45,069 bases of DNA, taken from positions 1 to 45,069 of the IMG/VR virus record IMGVR_UViG_3300032279_000442. One strand, written 5' to 3'. This document shows positions 4,586 to 35,730 of the stretch, piece after piece (within the stretch, counting starts at the first letter, position 1; each line of letters opens with the position of its first letter). A program made the translations under genes and the position numbers. The notes below the pieces were generated by a model. The model searched no databases. It was given only the letters and a program-made list of their open reading frames with translations, and was not told the origin of the DNA. The stretch is from a virus (Duplodnaviria > Caudoviricetes).

Positions 4586-4787
4586 AAACTTCCTGACAGA
4601 CTCGACGGATGCGCTTTTCATTCAGTCCCAGCGCGAAGGCTGCGACCGCAAAGGCGTCGGAGTTGAAAAACCTCATCGCGGCATCCCGCTCGGTTTTAAG
4701 TTCGAGATCGGCTCGGGCCTGTTCGATGATCGCGCAGAGGATTCGTCTGGCTCCGAGCGTGTCGAGTGGCAGAAACTTATTTGACAT
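4464..4787 (-). CDS. Hypothetical protein (AIIEQAxxD motif)
   Basis: Coupled to the polymerase stop and primase start; LCAIIEQARADL...AMRFF pattern typical of small phage proteins. Confidence 0.7.
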   Translation of the reverse strand: MSNKFLPLDTLGARRILCAIIEQARADLELKTERDAAMRFFNSDAFAVAAFALGLNEKRIRRVCQEVYEQNDRTKKSKDWHRATGPRKHKLAKVSGELRPDIQETKK

Positions 4788-6519
4788 AGCTTTTGGTCAG
4801 GTTCGCTTCTGCTCCGACGGGCAGATTGGCGCACCATGCTGGGGCGATCGCCATGGTGGATTCGATGTCTTTGAGCGCGGCGTCGGCCTTGTCCTCATCA
4901 ACGAGGCACACCACCTCGTCGTGAACCCGCATGATGACTTCGTAGCCTTTTCGGGTCAGTTCGCTCACCCGATCCATGAAGATGTCGCGGGCAAACGCCT
5001 GCGTGAGGTTTTCCACCAGCAAGCCGCCATAGAGCTTGCTTCGCATCATTTTTCCGTTGCGCGGGATCACGCCCGAGAACTCGCCCTGGGACGCCTTGAT
5101 CTCGCGGTAAACCAACTCGCGCTTCCTTGGGAGTTGGACATTTAGGTTGTTCCCTGCGCTTTCCTCCAGTTTTGCTTGGAGCCTTCTCCAAAGAGTCACG
5201 ATTCTTGGGTTCGAGGCGCGGTAGTCGGCGACGATGCGCTCCGCTTCGGCAGGCGCGATGTCGAGCCCCGCCATCATCTTCGCGACGACCTGGAATTTCT
5301 TGGCTCCGCACCCAAAGCCGAGCCCCAGCACACGGGCCTTGGCGAGTTGTCTCATTGACTTGTCCACCTCTTTGAGCGGGCGCAGGTTGGAGTAGCCCAT
5401 CGTGGCGCGGGCGTGAGCCTCATAAACATCAACGCCAGTCTTGAGAAGATCGAGGGTCGCGTGGTCGCCAGCGAGCCACAGGATGCAGCGGGCTTCAATC
5501 TGCGCGAGGTCACAAACGACGAGCATCTTTCCTTCGGGAGCTTCGATCATCGAGCGAATGTCCACGCCAGAGACAATGTCCCTAGGGAGGTTTTGAGCGT
5601 TCCAGCCGCCACTACCCGAGTCGCGCCCTGTGGTGGCTCCAAAGTATTTCAAATCGTAACCCATCCGCCCGTCGGGGCGGGTTCGGGAGAGCATGGTCTG
5701 GATTGTCTTTAGATGTTTGTTCGCCTTCCGGTGTTCGCGAATCGCGGATACCCAACGATACTTATCGGCGAACTCCTCCTCCCATTTTTGCGCTTGATCT
5801 TCTTTTTCGGCGAAGCTGTCGGGGGCCCAGATGCCCTCGATCGCGCATTGGTCGCGCACCGCATGGAGGCTTAACGCCGGACGCGCAGGATGCCATGGCA
5901 ACAGGTCGCGGGTTTCGTTGGAGGTCTGCTCCAAAGTTACGCTTGCATGGAATAACTTTTTTATATTTACCGGCACGCCCCGCATGGTCATTTCGCGGGT
6001 CACGCGGGACACATGGCGCTCATGCTCCGGCCACTTGTTGCCGTGCTTGAGCCAAAGATTCAAAGTGTTCTCTGCATCGCCGAGCGCGTATTTTTCTACC
6101 TCGGCGCGGAAGTCCACATCCATCGTCTCCCAGCGTTTGCCCTTCATCTTGTCGCGAACATCCTTGGACACCTCGGTCCCGAGAAGGTGGTGACTGGCTT
6201 CTTTGAGTGAGCGGGGGAATCCGAGGAACGCCGTCATGTCGGCGGTGTCAAAGACCTCTCCGCTTACTTGCGGAACAACGCCAGCTTCGATCAGAGCGCC
6301 TAGGAGCGTAAGGTCAAAGGCCGCGTTGTGCATGATCCATGTCGCCCCGTTCACGGCTTCCCAAGGGGCCGACTTCGGATGCCCGACATAGCGGAGGCCG
6401 TCGTCCCCAACCATCGAGACGAGGTAGATGTCGGTGGCGCGGGCGTAGTGCCACGCTCCCATGTCTCCAACGGTGCAGTCCTTGGAGTAGAAGGATTCAA
6501 AGTCGATGGCGTATGTCAT
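4777..6519 (-). CDS. Family A DNA polymerase with 3'-5' exonuclease domain
   Basis: Exo I DFES, Exo II HNAAFD, Exo III YALGD; TTGR, motif A DLAQIEAR, motif B RQLAKARVLGLGFG, motif C VHDE. Confidence 0.95.
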   Translation of the reverse strand: MTYAIDFESFYSKDCTVGDMGAWHYARATDIYLVSMVGDDGLRYVGHPKSAPWEAVNGATWIMHNAAFDLTLLGALIEAGVVPQVSGEVFDTADMTAFLGFPRSLKEASHHLLGTEVSKDVRDKMKGKRWETMDVDFRAEVEKYALGDAENTLNLWLKHGNKWPEHERHVSRVTREMTMRGVPVNIKKLFHASVTLEQTSNETRDLLPWHPARPALSLHAVRDQCAIEGIWAPDSFAEKEDQAQKWEEEFADKYRWVSAIREHRKANKHLKTIQTMLSRTRPDGRMGYDLKYFGATTGRDSGSGGWNAQNLPRDIVSGVDIRSMIEAPEGKMLVVCDLAQIEARCILWLAGDHATLDLLKTGVDVYEAHARATMGYSNLRPLKEVDKSMRQLAKARVLGLGFGCGAKKFQVVAKMMAGLDIAPAEAERIVADYRASNPRIVTLWRRLQAKLEESAGNNLNVQLPRKRELVYREIKASQGEFSGVIPRNGKMMRSKLYGGLLVENLTQAFARDIFMDRVSELTRKGYEVIMRVHDEVVCLVDEDKADAALKDIESTMAIAPAWCANLPVGAEANLTKSYVK

Positions 6520-7913
6520 TTTATGAGTTCATCCCAGAGGACGCGAAAAGCTCGCTCTGCTGCGGCAGGCACGACTCCGTTGCCGAGGAGTCGAAGCTCG
6601 TCGGTTCGATTGTCAGAGCGCACCATCCACTCACAAATTTCGGCCAGTTCTTGATGACTGAGGCCGGACAACTCGGCGAGGTCCACCCCATGCAGACGCC
6701 TTGGAGCGTTTCGACCCAACGCGGGTTCAGTTTTGCTGATTTGTTCCCGTTCGCAGCATGATCCCGCAGTTTGTATTTCCCCGCACAGCCCTCCCGCATC
6801 TCCATCACGCCGCCCTCGCCGTCCGAAGATGACGGGGTTCGCCATTGCTTCTCCACTTCGTGCAAGACTTGCGTCTGAATCGGCTTGTGAAGGTTCACTC
6901 CCTTCTCCGTCTGCTGGTATTCCGCTCGCTTCGTCCATTGCTCCGTGTTCTCCGGCGGTTGATAGCAAAACGCATTCGGCGTTGCCCAATTCTGGACCTT
7001 CTCCACCTGTTGATTTATTGTCTGGGATTGCAGCACCATCCGTCCATCCGGCGTCTTGCGGTAGGCTCTCTCGCCCGGTCTCGCTGGTTGTCCATCCTTC
7101 GTGTAAAGCGTCTCCACTCTCGCTCCCGCTTCGTTGGCTTGCGGTGTGCGCCAATCCACCGACCACCCTTGGCGGCTCCCATCCGTGCTGGGGTTGGCCG
7201 GGGCGGCTGGGCCAAGCTCCCCACGATTCGCCATTGCTGACAGACTCGGCCAATTCGCCGCATCCTGCGTCACCACCGCACAGAGGTAGCCCTTTTTCAT
7301 CATGTGATCGTGACTCTTCGACCCAACGGGTCCAACATCCTTGTATTCGCTTGCTCTGATCGTAGGCCAAGATGAAGGCCCGTTTCCGCTGGTGCGGTGC
7401 GCCGACTTCAGACGCGCTGAAAATTCCAGCCGTCGCTTCGTAACCCACCCGCTCCAATTCGCGGAGGGCATGGAGCAAAACAGGCGTCCCTGCGGGATCG
7501 CGCCAGCCGTCTCCGGCGAGTTTGGCGCTGACGATACCCTCGACATTTTCCAAGAAAACAAGGGAAGGTCGGCATTGAGTGATCCCGTCAAGGATGTGGG
7601 GGAAGAGGTGGCGTGGGTCTGAGTCGGCCCCGCGCTTTCCGGCGGCGCTAAATGGTTGGCACGGAAAGCCGCCTGACAAGATACCCACCAGTCCGTGAAA
7701 TTTTCCCCAAGGGAAGGATCGCAAATCGCTCCAGATAGGTGCGTCGTCCAAGTGTCCCGCTTGAGCTTTTGAGACCAAGTGCGCGATGGCGAACCCTTCG
7801 ATCTCTGCATAAGCGAGTGTGCGAAGGCGGTTGCCAAAGATTCTTTTGAGGCCGAGGTCGATACCCCCGTAGCCGCTGCAAAGCGAGAGGTGAGTGATGG
7901 TGTCAGTATCCAC
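6516..7913 (-). CDS. C5 cytosine DNA methyltransferase, catalytic chain (motifs I-VIII and X)
   Basis: HLSLCSGYGG (I), GGFPCQPFS (IV), ENVEG (VI), HQRKRAF (VIII), LRLLGNGVVP (X); likely GTG start at 7913 (frame is open to 7973). Confidence 0.92.
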   Translation of the reverse strand: MDTDTITHLSLCSGYGGIDLGLKRIFGNRLRTLAYAEIEGFAIAHLVSKAQAGHLDDAPIWSDLRSFPWGKFHGLVGILSGGFPCQPFSAAGKRGADSDPRHLFPHILDGITQCRPSLVFLENVEGIVSAKLAGDGWRDPAGTPVLLHALRELERVGYEATAGIFSASEVGAPHQRKRAFILAYDQSKRIQGCWTRWVEESRSHDEKGLPLCGGDAGCGELAESVSNGESWGAWPSRPGQPQHGWEPPRVVGGLAHTASQRSGSESGDALHEGWTTSETGRESLPQDAGWTDGAAIPDNKSTGGEGPELGNAECVLLSTAGEHGAMDEASGIPADGEGSEPSQADSDASLARSGEAMANPVIFGRRGRRDGDAGGLCGEIQTAGSCCEREQISKTEPALGRNAPRRLHGVDLAELSGLSHQELAEICEWMVRSDNRTDELRLLGNGVVPAAAERAFRVLWDELIK

Positions 7914-7915
7914 AT
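6521..7915 (-). CDS. Overprinted methyltransferase partner chain (TRD-like WxTP repeats plus motif IX)
   Basis: 464-codon ORF in a second frame across the whole MTase gene, ATG start; WPTI, WRTP, WATP, WRTP repeats and LNPRWVETLQGVCMGWT. Confidence 0.8.
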   Translation of the reverse strand: MWILTPSLTSRFAAATGVSTSASKESLATAFAHSLMQRSKGSPSRTWSQKLKRDTWTTHLSGAICDPSLGENFTDWWVSCQAAFRANHLAPPESAGPTQTHATSSPTSLTGSLNADLPLFSWKMSRVSSAPNSPETAGAIPQGRLFCSMPSANWSGWVTKRRLEFSARLKSAHRTSGNGPSSWPTIRASEYKDVGPVGSKSHDHMMKKGYLCAVVTQDAANWPSLSAMANRGELGPAAPANPSTDGSRQGWSVDWRTPQANEAGARVETLYTKDGQPARPGERAYRKTPDGRMVLQSQTINQQVEKVQNWATPNAFCYQPPENTEQWTKRAEYQQTEKGVNLHKPIQTQVLHEVEKQWRTPSSSDGEGGVMEMREGCAGKYKLRDHAANGNKSAKLNPRWVETLQGVCMGWTSPSCPASVIKNWPKFVSGWCALTIEPTSFDSSATESCLPQQSELFASSGMNS

Positions 7916-7924
7916 TTAGAGAGG

Positions 7925-7960
7925 TTCGGGTTGTGAGGTTATTACATCTCACAACCCGAA
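7925..7960. promoter_or_regulatory. Perfect 13-bp inverted repeat just upstream of the MTase dual start
   Basis: TTCGGGTTGTGAG (7925-7937) and CTCACAACCCGAA (7948-7960); the 10-nt loop carries the TGTAATAAC motif. Confidence 0.7.
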
Positions 7961-7965
7961 TAATA

Positions 7966-8775
7966 TTACGCAAGGGTTGAGATGAGTTCCTTCTGAGCCT
8001 CGGTGACGAGGCCCGCCGAGCGGATTGTCGGAGTCCACCAAGACTTGTCAGCCTTGGTCATAACGACGCTGCCTAAGTCCCATTGACCGCCCTTGAGACC
8101 TGTTGCGGCAAGGTGGGTGCGGAGGCTGGTCGCGATCGGCACCGCCACGCCGCTGTATGCGGTCGAAGCAAATGTCGCCACGGCGCGAGTGTAGCGGGTG
8201 CCATCCGAAGCGATGTTGTAGAACAACGGCTCGGCATCGTCGCTGATGTCATCCATCGCTTGAATCAAGAACTCCACGGTGGCGATCTCCGAGAAGAAGC
8301 CCGCTCCGCGAGTCCAGTGAACTTGCCCACCGATTTCGCGAACCTCTGAGGCCGTGTTAAAGAGCCTCGCGGGGGTTTGTTCGCGATCGTCGTAAGGAAT
8401 GTTCTCTTGATACTGCTTCAGCATTTGAAGCGTGATGACACGCATGGGAACGCCCTTCTTTTTGTCGGCAGGGTCGATCTTTGAGATGGCGTGTTGCTTG
8501 TCGAGAACCCAAGTGCCAGGGCTGAACTGGTCAGCGAGAACGCCTGTTTTATTGACAAGATTGATGCGCGGGAGGCGTGTGTCTGAGGCACTCCAGTCGC
8601 CAACGAGCCCTTTTTCTGCGAGGGCCGTGGTGGTCGTGATGTTAGCGAGAGCGTTTGCCTCTGGCTGGGTGGTCGCGAGTTGTTTGGACTCGGTGGTGGT
8701 TTCGTCGAATGTTATTGTTGCCATATTTTCGGTTTTTGTGGTTTTTGGTTTTTGTTCTGGGGTTGTGTTAGACAT
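7966..8775 (-). CDS. Putative single-stranded DNA-binding / replication accessory protein
   Basis: Position between Cas4-like nuclease and polymerase; D.RLPRINLV motif; function inferred from synteny only. Confidence 0.55.
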   Translation of the reverse strand: MSNTTPEQKPKTTKTENMATITFDETTTESKQLATTQPEANALANITTTTALAEKGLVGDWSASDTRLPRINLVNKTGVLADQFSPGTWVLDKQHAISKIDPADKKKGVPMRVITLQMLKQYQENIPYDDREQTPARLFNTASEVREIGGQVHWTRGAGFFSEIATVEFLIQAMDDISDDAEPLFYNIASDGTRYTRAVATFASTAYSGVAVPIATSLRTHLAATGLKGGQWDLGSVVMTKADKSWWTPTIRSAGLVTEAQKELISTLA

Positions 8776-8793
8776 TATTAGGTTATATCATGT

Positions 8794-11172
8794 TCAAAAG
8801 TTTTTTGATTTTTTTAAGAACGAGATTGTCCCCTCGACTTTTGCAGCGTTCGCGTCGATCAGCTTGTCGCGTAGAGCCGCTTTGGCTTTAGCCATTTGGC
8901 CTCTTTCCGCGGTGCGGGAGTAGGCTTTTTCCAACTCGCCGATTTTTAGTTTGGCGCAGGCTGCAAAAGCCTCCGGCGTTATTTTTTCTTTCACGACTTC
9001 CCACGCTGCTTGCGGGTCAGTGATCTCAAACGCGCTGCTCCGTTCGGCGAGTTCCCATCCTGGGATTTCCACGCCGGAAAGGCGAAGCTCCAAGGCCCGC
9101 GCATCCACTTTCTCCGCCCAACCTTTGAGGATGGGAGCGAGCTTTTTGGCGAGCGCCATTTTCTCGGGGTCGCTGATGATTGCTGGGTCGTATTCCGGCG
9201 GCAGCGCGAGTTCGTCTGGCTGATATTTGCTGGCGATTGTGAGCGCGAGGCTGTTGAGCTTGTGGCACTGTGCGCGGTTATTACACCACGCGCAGTGACT
9301 TCCGGTTTGGTAGTTGGCGGGGTCATTTCGTTTGGCGGCTTCGACAATAGCGGTGACAGCAGCGACAAGCCGGTCGTAATCCGCGTCGCGAGTCCACTCC
9401 ACGACATCAATCACGCCCTGGAAGGGAAGAAGCACATGAACAGAAATTTTGTTTATCTGGGGGTGTGCGTCCCAAATTCCGATGCTGTAAGCCCAAAATT
9501 GAGGAGAATCCGCTTCATATTTTCCCCACGCGAACTTGTAATCAACCAATTCGGCGGTGTCACCGTGAAGCATAATGTGATCAATGTGCCCGAACTGATC
9601 GAGCACGATGTAGCGCCGTTCCCGAATCTCCTCCAGCCCTGCTCCACACTTCTCGCGAAGCTGCCGGAGGTATTGCAGGCAGAGCCCCGCGCATTTGCGA
9701 AGGAACTCGTCATCGGCGGGGATGACATCGAGGTTCTCCTTTTCGATCGCGAGGTGCCCTAAGGTGCCGCGGTCGGCGGCTGTGGTGTCTCGCGTGTTGT
9801 CGTTGCGAAAGCCTGGGCATTTCGCTTTTTCTTTTAGTGACGACGGAGAATGCTCCGCGTGTTCTTTTTCTGGTGGTGCCGCCGCGATCGACACCTCTGC
9901 TATGTCGCGGTCTGTTGTGTTTTCCATAATTCCTTCGTTCAAAATTTGTTGGTTTTCGCGCTTGTGGCGCGTGAGGTGCAGGGCCGCTTGCTCGACCGTC
10001 CCTGGCGCGTAGAGGCGCAGTGCCAGAGCGCGGTTCTTAGCCCCGACGCGGCGCACCCGCCCGATCGCTTGTTCCTCTGCCGTGCCTGAAAATTGCGGGC
10101 AAAGAAGGGCCGTGCGCGGCGCGTTGCCGTGCGTGTCGTGGAGGTCGATAGATTGACCACCGGCTCCAATTTGGACAACGAGGCAGCGCAGAACATTGGC
10201 TTGAAACCTATCGCGGCTCCCCTGTCGCAATTCCTGCGACACCCGCCCATCAATCGTCTCCGACATCTCCCCCAGCAATGCGGCAGCTTTGTCGATCGAG
10301 GCGTGGAAATTGAGGAACAACACGACGCTCCCGCCCTCTTCGACAATTTCTGACGCTCGCTCGACGAGGTAGGGAACTTTGATGAGTTCGATCGCTTGGC
10401 GCTGCCGCAGATTCTTGACGGCGGCAGGGTCCTCGATGTCGATCATCTCGCCGTAGAGTTTTAAGATTTCGTCGCGATCCTCACTCGAAAGGTGAATTGG
10501 CTCGTCACAGAGTCGGAGTTCGGGGAGTTGGTCGGCCAGCACGGCATCCAAGGTGCGGTTGCCACGACTTGTGAAAATGGAATGATGAAGATGCTCCATT
10601 GCGAGCTTGTTCTCGGGAGTCTTCGGGTCCCATTCAAGCCCGCCCCAGCGCCCGTTCTCCGCGCCCATCTTTCTTACCCAGCCCCAGAACGCCCTAGGGT
10701 GAAACAGGCCGAGCTTGGAGCCAATCGCTTTCATGCGAAGCGGGCTCTCCGCTGCCGTTGCCGACAGCATCAGCACTCGGTAGGGGGCTACTTCGAGCAT
10801 CTTGCTGTTTGTCGATTTGTAGCCTGCGAACATATGAACTTCGTCCACGACCAACAGGAGATGGACGGGAGTCCACTTAAAATCTTTGCCTGACTTTTTG
10901 ACCCATGGGGTGTTTCCCGCACGGAGCTTTTCAGGGTTCTCCACGAACACCGGCTCGATGCCGAAAGCCTCCAGAGTGGCTCGCCACTTGGCTTTGACGC
11001 TCTTGGGGCAGACGACTCCCACGGGTAGCCCGTAGCGCCGCGCCACTTCGCAGGCGATGATTGTTTTGCCGCCCCCGCAGCCGGTCGCCTCCAGTGAGGC
11101 TCCGTTGGCGTCGAGACTCGCGAGGTTTTTCTCCACCGCGTCTTGTTGAAATGGGTAAAGGGAGAACTTCAT
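8794..11172 (-). CDS. SF2 helicase fused to a Cas4-like PD-(D/E)xK nuclease (DUF2800-like)
   Basis: YPFQ, GCGGGKT, DEVH, SAT, QAIGRVRRVG; then HSPSS...CPG, GTLGH, GHID, DYK and CAWCNNRAQC. Confidence 0.88.
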   Translation of the reverse strand: MKFSLYPFQQDAVEKNLASLDANGASLEATGCGGGKTIIACEVARRYGLPVGVVCPKSVKAKWRATLEAFGIEPVFVENPEKLRAGNTPWVKKSGKDFKWTPVHLLLVVDEVHMFAGYKSTNSKMLEVAPYRVLMLSATAAESPLRMKAIGSKLGLFHPRAFWGWVRKMGAENGRWGGLEWDPKTPENKLAMEHLHHSIFTSRGNRTLDAVLADQLPELRLCDEPIHLSSEDRDEILKLYGEMIDIEDPAAVKNLRQRQAIELIKVPYLVERASEIVEEGGSVVLFLNFHASIDKAAALLGEMSETIDGRVSQELRQGSRDRFQANVLRCLVVQIGAGGQSIDLHDTHGNAPRTALLCPQFSGTAEEQAIGRVRRVGAKNRALALRLYAPGTVEQAALHLTRHKRENQQILNEGIMENTTDRDIAEVSIAAAPPEKEHAEHSPSSLKEKAKCPGFRNDNTRDTTAADRGTLGHLAIEKENLDVIPADDEFLRKCAGLCLQYLRQLREKCGAGLEEIRERRYIVLDQFGHIDHIMLHGDTAELVDYKFAWGKYEADSPQFWAYSIGIWDAHPQINKISVHVLLPFQGVIDVVEWTRDADYDRLVAAVTAIVEAAKRNDPANYQTGSHCAWCNNRAQCHKLNSLALTIASKYQPDELALPPEYDPAIISDPEKMALAKKLAPILKGWAEKVDARALELRLSGVEIPGWELAERSSAFEITDPQAAWEVVKEKITPEAFAACAKLKIGELEKAYSRTAERGQMAKAKAALRDKLIDANAAKVEGTISFLKKSKNF

Positions 11173-35688: not shown

Positions 35689-35730
35689 AAACCCCACAGG
35701 GACTTGGTCTCTGTGGGGTTTTTCTTTTTT
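35689..35730 (+). terminator. Rho-independent terminator
   Basis: AAACCCCACAGGGAC / GTCTCTGTGGGGTTT stem followed by a T-tract. Confidence 0.85.

Follow-up and report, generated by a model that had tools for sequence, protein, structure and literature searches.

The window, a linear virus record of 45,069 nt (45 kb) that carries integrase, tail, primase, helicase and polA genes, contains on its minus strand a predicted DNA methyltransferase gene that is open in two reading frames. Both frames begin at a single ATGTG. As the earlier note on this DNA had proposed, the ATG at 7915-7913 opens one frame of 464 amino acids (beta; stop TAA at 6523-6521, with a further in-frame TAA immediately upstream of the ATG), and the overlapping GTG at 7913-7911 opens the catalytic frame of 465 amino acids (alpha; stop TGA at 6518-6516), both read on the minus strand. 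Two overlapping start codons, AUG and GUG, each with a frame of its own, are a hallmark of an ambiguous AUGUG start site. The note placed the GTG a few codons ahead of motif I, and the distance is 10 codons (LCSGYGG, from 7883); it also described both stops and the ATG of the polymerase as packed together at the 3' end, where all three indeed lie inside TAAAATGA (6523-6516). The features of the gene and its downstream neighbour are as follows:

7911..7915, minus strand: ATGTG double start, with the ATG of beta at 7915-7913 and the GTG of alpha at 7913-7911
6521..7915, minus strand: beta chain, 464 aa, +1 frame, with a conserved N-terminal part of about 185 aa, W-x-T-P repeat modules and a motif IX-like segment
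7898..7915, minus strand: N-terminal peptide of beta, MWILTP (MWILP in the family), predicted docking strand on the motif III region of alpha
6698..6730, minus strand: motif IX-like segment LNPRWVETLQG in the beta frame, predicted to pack on motif X of alpha
6516..7913, minus strand: alpha chain, 465 aa, with C5 methyltransferase large domain, low-complexity linker and motif X
7883-7863, minus strand: motif I of alpha, LCSGYGG
7661-7659, minus strand: Cys codon of the catalytic PC of alpha, whose large domain also holds ENV and motif VIII
6567..6584, minus strand: motif X core GNGVVP, alpha frame
6516..6523, minus strand: TAAAATGA, which contains the stops of both chains and the ATG of polA (6519-6517), a likely site of translational coupling for polA
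4777..6519, minus strand: polA, DNA polymerase family A, which directly follows the hairpin in empty-site relatives

The GTG frame is a predicted C5 cytosine DNA methyltransferase with motifs I-VIII and X. It matches Pfam PF00145 (E 3e-30) and PHROG 363, and the hallmarks of C5 methyltransferases (PF00145) are present, namely motif I, the catalytic PC, ENV, motif VIII, motif X and the large-domain fold. The model of an alpha homolog (pLDDT 84) adopts this fold and matches M.HhaI (E 5e-13) and M.HaeIII.

The +1 frame encodes a chain with no match in Pfam or PHROG, and among its 107 relatives every named one is labelled 'hypothetical protein'. Modelled alone, beta gives a low-confidence structure with no fold match and no solved relative, and its look-alikes in the structure atlas are unnamed; a 230-aa homolog modelled alone likewise has no confident fold (pTM 0.24). 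We take the segment LNPRWVETLQG to be motif IX-like. The W-x-T-P repeat modules, of which beta homologs carry 0-7, likely serve in target recognition. Recognition would point to beta: the alpha frame is broken by 13-19 stops across the variable region in three homologs (L059, L060 and L331), and the repeat modules sit in beta; judged from these frames, the variable region is likely read in the beta frame rather than in alpha. Contigs from other, DNA-type sequencing runs join across the variable region of the window at 6614-7365 (e.g. 7214-7362, 6614-7171 and 6988-7159), joins that are consistent with gain and loss of repeat modules. Among the sequencing runs searched, the window stretch was found in only one, which may be its source, and the shares of RNA-type runs were 0.05-0.06.

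When alpha is recoded synonymously, the +1 frame stays free of stops along the entire gene in 0.2% of 3000 trials, and along the first 185 codons in 4.6%. Openness of the 5' part could arise by chance at this latter rate, so homologs are needed as evidence for that part of the frame.

The double start among homologous loci

Homologs were fetched by protein similarity, with the start playing no part in their selection; of 285 loci retrieved, 22 in which no motif I was recognised and 21 duplicates were removed before counting, and 169 representatives below 90% identity were compared. They form two classes, one with full-overlap beta (75/169, the class of the window) versus one with beta starting inside alpha, where the modal beta ATG lies at codon 54, past motif I, and is preceded by stops. 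The note had suggested checking whether ATGTG is conserved at homologous starts, and a start pair 2 nt apart occurs in 56/75 full-overlap homologs (53 ATG/GTG, two GTG/GTG and one TTG/GTG), while in the remaining 19/75 alpha and beta start separately, at a distance of 4 to 10 nt; this count omits about seven more full-overlap loci, owing to a loose class label. After correction and enlargement, the 2-nt pair is found in 88/108 loci and separate starts in 20/108, a count that includes loci fetched with the ATGTGG pattern and leaves L005 and L290 outside its classes. The nearest start pair of full-overlap loci is never more than 10 nt apart, a closeness that is partly built into the class definition; alpha starts 15-24 nt ahead of motif I are common in the internal-start class. 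Split starts require 15 changes of state on a quick tree, with at least 10 forced by well-supported branches, indicating that they arose repeatedly. The claim of a single initiation region for both chains is supported by this conservation, and the outcome that the note named as refuting it, a lack of conserved ATGTG, is not what the homologs show.

Among 104 representatives with NTGTG in register, drawn from 405 loci after removal of 32 and 66 on the same respective grounds and then of 21 with a short core, the +1 frame is stop-free for 150 codons past motif I in 97, and the +2 frame over the same 150 codons in none; a +1 motif IX-like segment is present in 96/104. The seven exceptions comprise a mis-anchored locus (L064), three chance NTGTG matches in the internal-start class (L145, L173 and L180), one short contig, and the ATGTG loci L005 and L290, each with one stop in the beta frame. 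L064 was excluded from the tree, the codon test, the sole-start count and the stricter dereplication, and the three chance matches from the last two. The GTG is the sole ATG, GTG or TTG between an in-frame stop and motif I in 50/100 loci, and it is also alpha's sole canonical start in both methylase-bearing close relatives of the window.

These relatives bear on the possibility that alpha of this phage starts upstream by translational coupling, at TTG 7973, overlapping the end of the previous gene, or at GTG 7952, with the ATG serving beta only. The catalytic frame of the window is indeed open farther upstream to these codons, beginning with TTG 7973. However, the upstream stretch contains stops in both methylase-bearing close relatives, with tandem stops and no other canonical start in L416/L465 and L462, and the extension would pass through the hairpin described below, making such a start very improbable.

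The Trp codon of beta provides the TG of the alpha start codon. In an alignment of 52 beta N-termini from loci chosen for the NTGTG pair, M1, W2 and P5 are invariant (52/52). Since ATG-TGG forces GTG, the five letters on their own may be conserved through selection for Met-Trp. Beta starts M-T-W in L001, L198 and L206, where the base preceding the Trp codon makes the alpha start ATG, and loci without the beta Trp have an alpha ATG upstream, from which it follows that the alpha start is normally built on the Trp codon of beta.

The main rival to dual initiation is an early frameshift, in which ribosomes initiate at the AUG only and alpha arises by -1 ribosomal frameshifting or transcriptional slippage, leaving the GTG as a by-product of Met-Trp. 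The forced GTG agrees with this proposal, as does an A_AAx site in beta phase before motif I in 58/104 loci and a full slippery heptamer in 10. However, such a site is missing from 46/104 loci, among them the window, and a run of seven A or T occurs in none. Where the GTG pair has been lost, alpha always has a start codon of its own no more than 10 nt away; frameshifting would make such a codon unnecessary, which argues against it. Frameshifting is accordingly regarded as quite improbable.

Selection on beta and the predicted complex

Selection on the N-terminal part of beta was assessed in pairs of loci at 50-79% alpha identity, scored at four-fold sites unable to make a +1 stop, the pairs not being independent. 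Full-overlap loci have four-fold identities of 0.53, 0.70 and 0.42 in alpha residues 1-15, 16-30 and 31-45; the corresponding values for the 56 internal-start loci are 0.26, 0.32 and 0.32. In the internal-start loci identity climbs to 0.43-0.50 from residue 46, where beta begins, and this step serves as an internal control. First positions of Leu codons, silent in both frames, are saturated (0.56 versus 0.53 expected). The codon pattern shows that beta is under protein-level selection from its start. Frame 2 is thus open from the start because its residues matter. The note had explained this openness by the shared initiation region, an account that holds for the shared start but is incomplete, given that N-terminal residues of beta are under protein-level selection and are predicted to dock on alpha.

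The alternative that beta starts internally, with the 5' part of frame 2 untranslated and kept open by the codons of alpha, draws on the 4.6% of recodings in which the alpha core alone leaves +1 open over 185 codons, and on the failure of the 230-aa beta homolog to fold confidently alone. However, four-fold constraint in alpha residues 1-45 is confined to the full-overlap class, internal-start loci average 2.2 stops in the first 50 codons, and P5 of beta is invariant though alpha varies there. An internal start of beta in full-overlap loci is therefore held to be highly unlikely.

Models of the alpha-beta complex, built for the pair from homolog L208, reached a score of 0.84 (best control 0.00), where the mark applied is reached by 116/157 solved complexes and 2/215 mismatched pairs; the runs share at least 73% of contacts, and partner pLDDT is at least 72. 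The best contacts, both away from shared codons, join beta 2-5 (W2-P5) to alpha 58-60 (P58-W60) and the motif IX segment of beta (211-222) to motif X of alpha (221-231), the latter being covered by the tendency of halves of a split gene to pass through likeness to solved monomers. Contacts near the diagonal (alpha 147-162 with beta 140-162) could be artefactual, as the paired frames share codons. The model supports binding of alpha and beta to each other, in which the MWILP strand of beta would dock on alpha and the beta repeats would read the DNA.

The hairpin, polA and the TGTAATAAC motif

The double start is preceded by the perfect 13-bp inverted repeat that the note described 9 nt upstream with a motif in its loop, the arms being 7960-7948 and 7937-7925 and the loop motif TGTAATAAC. 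The upstream features are as follows:

7966..8775, minus strand: upstream gene, 269 aa, with its stop 5 nt before the hairpin
7948..7960, minus strand: 5' arm of the hairpin, 13 bp, perfect inverted repeat with a 10-nt loop
7938..7946, minus strand: TGTAATAAC, an intergenic motif found genome-wide, in the hairpin loop at the methylase
7925..7937, minus strand: 3' arm of the hairpin, 13 bp, ending 9 nt ahead of the ATG
7916..7924, minus strand: pyrimidine-rich 9-nt spacer that lacks a Shine-Dalgarno sequence; spacers of this type also stand before polA in empty-site relatives

The RNA fold of the hairpin has a z-score of -2.96, and equal stability was reached in 0/200 shuffles. Among 12 aligned copies, seven precede polA, three the methylase and two another gene; changes on both sides occur in 7 of 14 pairs, and the covariation score exceeds all 500 shuffles, bearing in mind that related sequences can beat shuffles without structure, with slid controls far lower. 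The hairpin tail holds 3 T in 8 in the window, and several relatives have runs of 4-5 T. A scan listed no sigma-70 promoter or canonical terminator at the site, and Rfam 15 gave no match at gathering score in 7700-8200, only one at chance level (E 1.1).

An inverted repeat of 10 bp or more within 70 nt upstream is found in 1/75 full-overlap homologs, namely the window itself, and its absence from the other 74 rules out the hairpin as a feature of the methylase family. The special role that the note gave to the hairpin is not upheld, as only this one homolog has it and it also precedes polA in relatives without a methylase. Judged from the aligned copies, it is a feature of the replication operon of this phage group, a polA leader. 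It would serve the transcript from upstream as a leaky terminator or 3' stabiliser, and the motif carried in its loop is promoter-like.

The relation of the hairpin to polA is seen in empty sites. In L460 a hairpin nearly as in the window is followed directly by polA, and a contig of run X3 (DNA-type) joins 7913 to 6517; the beta ATG therefore occupies the position that the polA ATG has in empty sites. The methylase has thus likely been inserted as a cassette at the polA start, with polA recoupled at the cassette end, where it would now be translated by coupling at TAAAATGA. A 10-base stretch is repeated at both junctions in L462 and L465. The slot between the 269-aa gene and polA, which holds different small genes in L407-L411, L414, L421-L423 and L430-L432, is an insertion hotspot. 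No restriction gene was found among the scanned neighbours. The 269-aa gene itself has no match in Pfam or PHROG; PF23977 appears in 22-32% of the members of its look-alike clusters, which serves as a lead only.

In more distant polA relatives (L436-L458) a long hairpin (about -33 to -40 kcal/mol) is conserved immediately ahead of the aligned polymerase and seems to lie within an N-terminal extension that is in frame. Many distant polA matches are 380-850 nt longer than the query, an excess that suggests inserts.

It has to be considered whether the hairpin replaces the Shine-Dalgarno helix as a ruler, fixing for this phage the choice between AUG and GUG and thereby the subunit ratio. None of the three methylase-bearing phages of this group has a Shine-Dalgarno sequence, and in each the hairpin lies 9-14 nt upstream; the stem covaries and ends within the ribosome footprint of the AUG on read-through RNA. 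However, the hairpin is missing from 74/75 full-overlap homologs, it also stands before polA and other genes without a double start, and its spacer to the ATGTG varies (9, 11 and 14 nt). Such a function is improbable, and the hairpin is treated here as a polA-leader element.

The loop motif is separate from the hairpin and, by its distribution, may be a promoter or operator. The window contains 16 matches to TGTAATAAC versus 3.1 expected; 10/15 sites are intergenic, in a window with an intergenic share of 7%, and 8/10 intergenic sites lie 17-48 nt before a gene on the same strand, mostly without a stem. In L413 a TGTAATAAC variant follows the hairpin. Other copies, mostly intergenic and co-oriented, lie at 2051, 12417, 14084, 16070, 18922, 23498, 23525, 30602, 35775 and 35866, the last two forming a divergent pair that adjoins a 15-bp hairpin at 35689-35721. 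An exact copy at 9277-9285 (minus strand), within a helicase/nuclease gene, likewise falls in a loop, that of a predicted stem (-21.6 kcal/mol); this may be a coding coincidence.

Four GAAC-N17/19-GTCT(A/G) sites, which presumably resemble ECF sigma promoters, lie on the minus strand just before leftward genes (first bases 14305, 12828, 8795 and 2083). The site ahead of the 269-aa gene is kept in relatives L407-L418. In relatives, TAATAAC falls within the spacer of the GAAC/GTCT site, which fits an operator.

Initiation and comparison with known systems

Taken as a whole, the gene is open in two frames from a conserved ATGTG that likely yields both chains of a heterodimeric C5 methyltransferase, and the hairpin is a conserved polA-leader element likely taken over by the methylase when it inserted at the polA start codon; to this reading we assign a probability of roughly 0.7. 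Host ribosomes would initiate at either the AUG (beta) or the GUG two bases on (alpha), and by analogy with reporters in E. coli (PMC9841429) the choice of start would set the alpha:beta ratio. According to that study, AUGUG in E. coli allows ribosomes to initiate de novo in either frame with an aligned spacing of 12/14, where AUG is favoured over GUG 3.5-fold in vitro and about 10-fold in vivo rather than 1:1 (PMC9841429). Preferred Shine-Dalgarno spacing differs between species, as a further report states (PMC13009471).

Homologs with plain ATGTG have a Shine-Dalgarno match in 41/81 loci and none in 40/81. Spacing in the former has its mode at 12 (12.3/41), versus 18.5/200 for neighbouring ORFs, whose mode is 14 (Fisher p = 0.001); the peak at 12 is smaller under stricter dereplication (8.8/32 at 80% and 4/20 at 70%), and in a first, smaller homolog set it was not significant (p = 0.22). 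The leader of the window contains no Shine-Dalgarno sequence ahead of the ATGTG, so the published positioning rule cannot be applied to the window.

The nearest enzymatic parallel is M.EcoHK31I of E. coli HK31 (YGGCCR), an alpha/beta C5 methyltransferase (PMC2836561, PMC3404938). As described, it agrees with the window in having motifs I-VIII and X on one chain and a motif IX-like segment in another frame of the same DNA. However, beta of M.EcoHK31I is small, nested in alpha and able to do without its first 42 residues in vitro, and the recognition domain has been placed on alpha; unlike it, beta of the window is as long as alpha, starts 2 nt earlier and has a constrained N-terminus. M.AquI, another two-chain C5 methyltransferase, is described as having motifs IX and X both on beta (PMC3404938), unlike the window, where motif X is on alpha. 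Four homologs (L009, L190, L338 and L350) have motif X moved to the beta frame in the manner of M.AquI while keeping full overlap from ATGTG.

As to the start itself, the E. coli AUGUG/GUGUG sites of pqiA and tamA likewise have two start codons 2 nt apart, and the Shine-Dalgarno spacing mode of the homologs resembles theirs (12/14), the window having no such sequence (PMC9841429). Those sites are described as giving side peptides of 15 and 10 residues of unknown use, whereas here the products are conserved chains of about 460 aa belonging to one enzyme (PMC9841429). In Thermus rnpA-rpmH, two functional proteins are encoded in fully overlapping frames from AUGGAUG with one ribosome binding site (cited in PMC9841429). 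The same geometry, NTGAATG with starts 4 nt apart, occurs in L056, L065, L067 and L223; however, the Thermus pair comprises two unrelated proteins with starts 4 nt apart, whereas the present pair comprises subunits of one enzyme with starts mostly 2 nt apart.

Dual initiation at AUGUG and two-frame methylases are each already published separately, and in the literature searched, with subscription journals outside its scope, no paper joining them was found. Published work on AUGUG establishes that it can start two frames and leaves open whether a natural site gives two useful proteins (PMC9841429). The present analysis contributes two tests, the stepwise one on codons and the one on spacing, and describes the pattern of start swaps, the docking predicted for the N-terminus, where the hairpin comes from and how motif X varies. 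It is fairly probable, on balance, that AUGUG is a working device in a large phage family: one initiation region would serve two full-length, co-selected subunits, the Trp codon of the beta docking strand would double as the alpha start, start choice would set the stoichiometry, the gene would be a cassette plugging into the start codon of another gene, and some homologs would make three chains.

The family offers about a hundred natural variants (ATGTG, GTGTG, TTGTG and starts 4-10 nt apart, with and without Shine-Dalgarno sequences), and DNA methylation provides a simple read-out, making the dual-start question directly testable. A cultured isolate, Geminisphaera colitermitum TAV2, is among the homologs (L206, starts 5 nt apart). 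In the one annotated phage record examined only alpha is listed, such that annotation misses half of these enzymes; given that neither Pfam nor PHROG has a family for the chain likely to serve in recognition, target prediction or cloning from the annotated frame alone would mislead.

A further arrangement is seen in L059, L060, L061 and L331, where the alpha frame terminates past motif VIII (downstream of codon ~160) and motif X is found on a third ORF. This ORF starts MADT behind a GGAG-type sequence, with its ATG drawn from the codons of a beta W-P-T-P repeat. From their frames, these four are likely three-chain methyltransferases encoded by one stretch of DNA.
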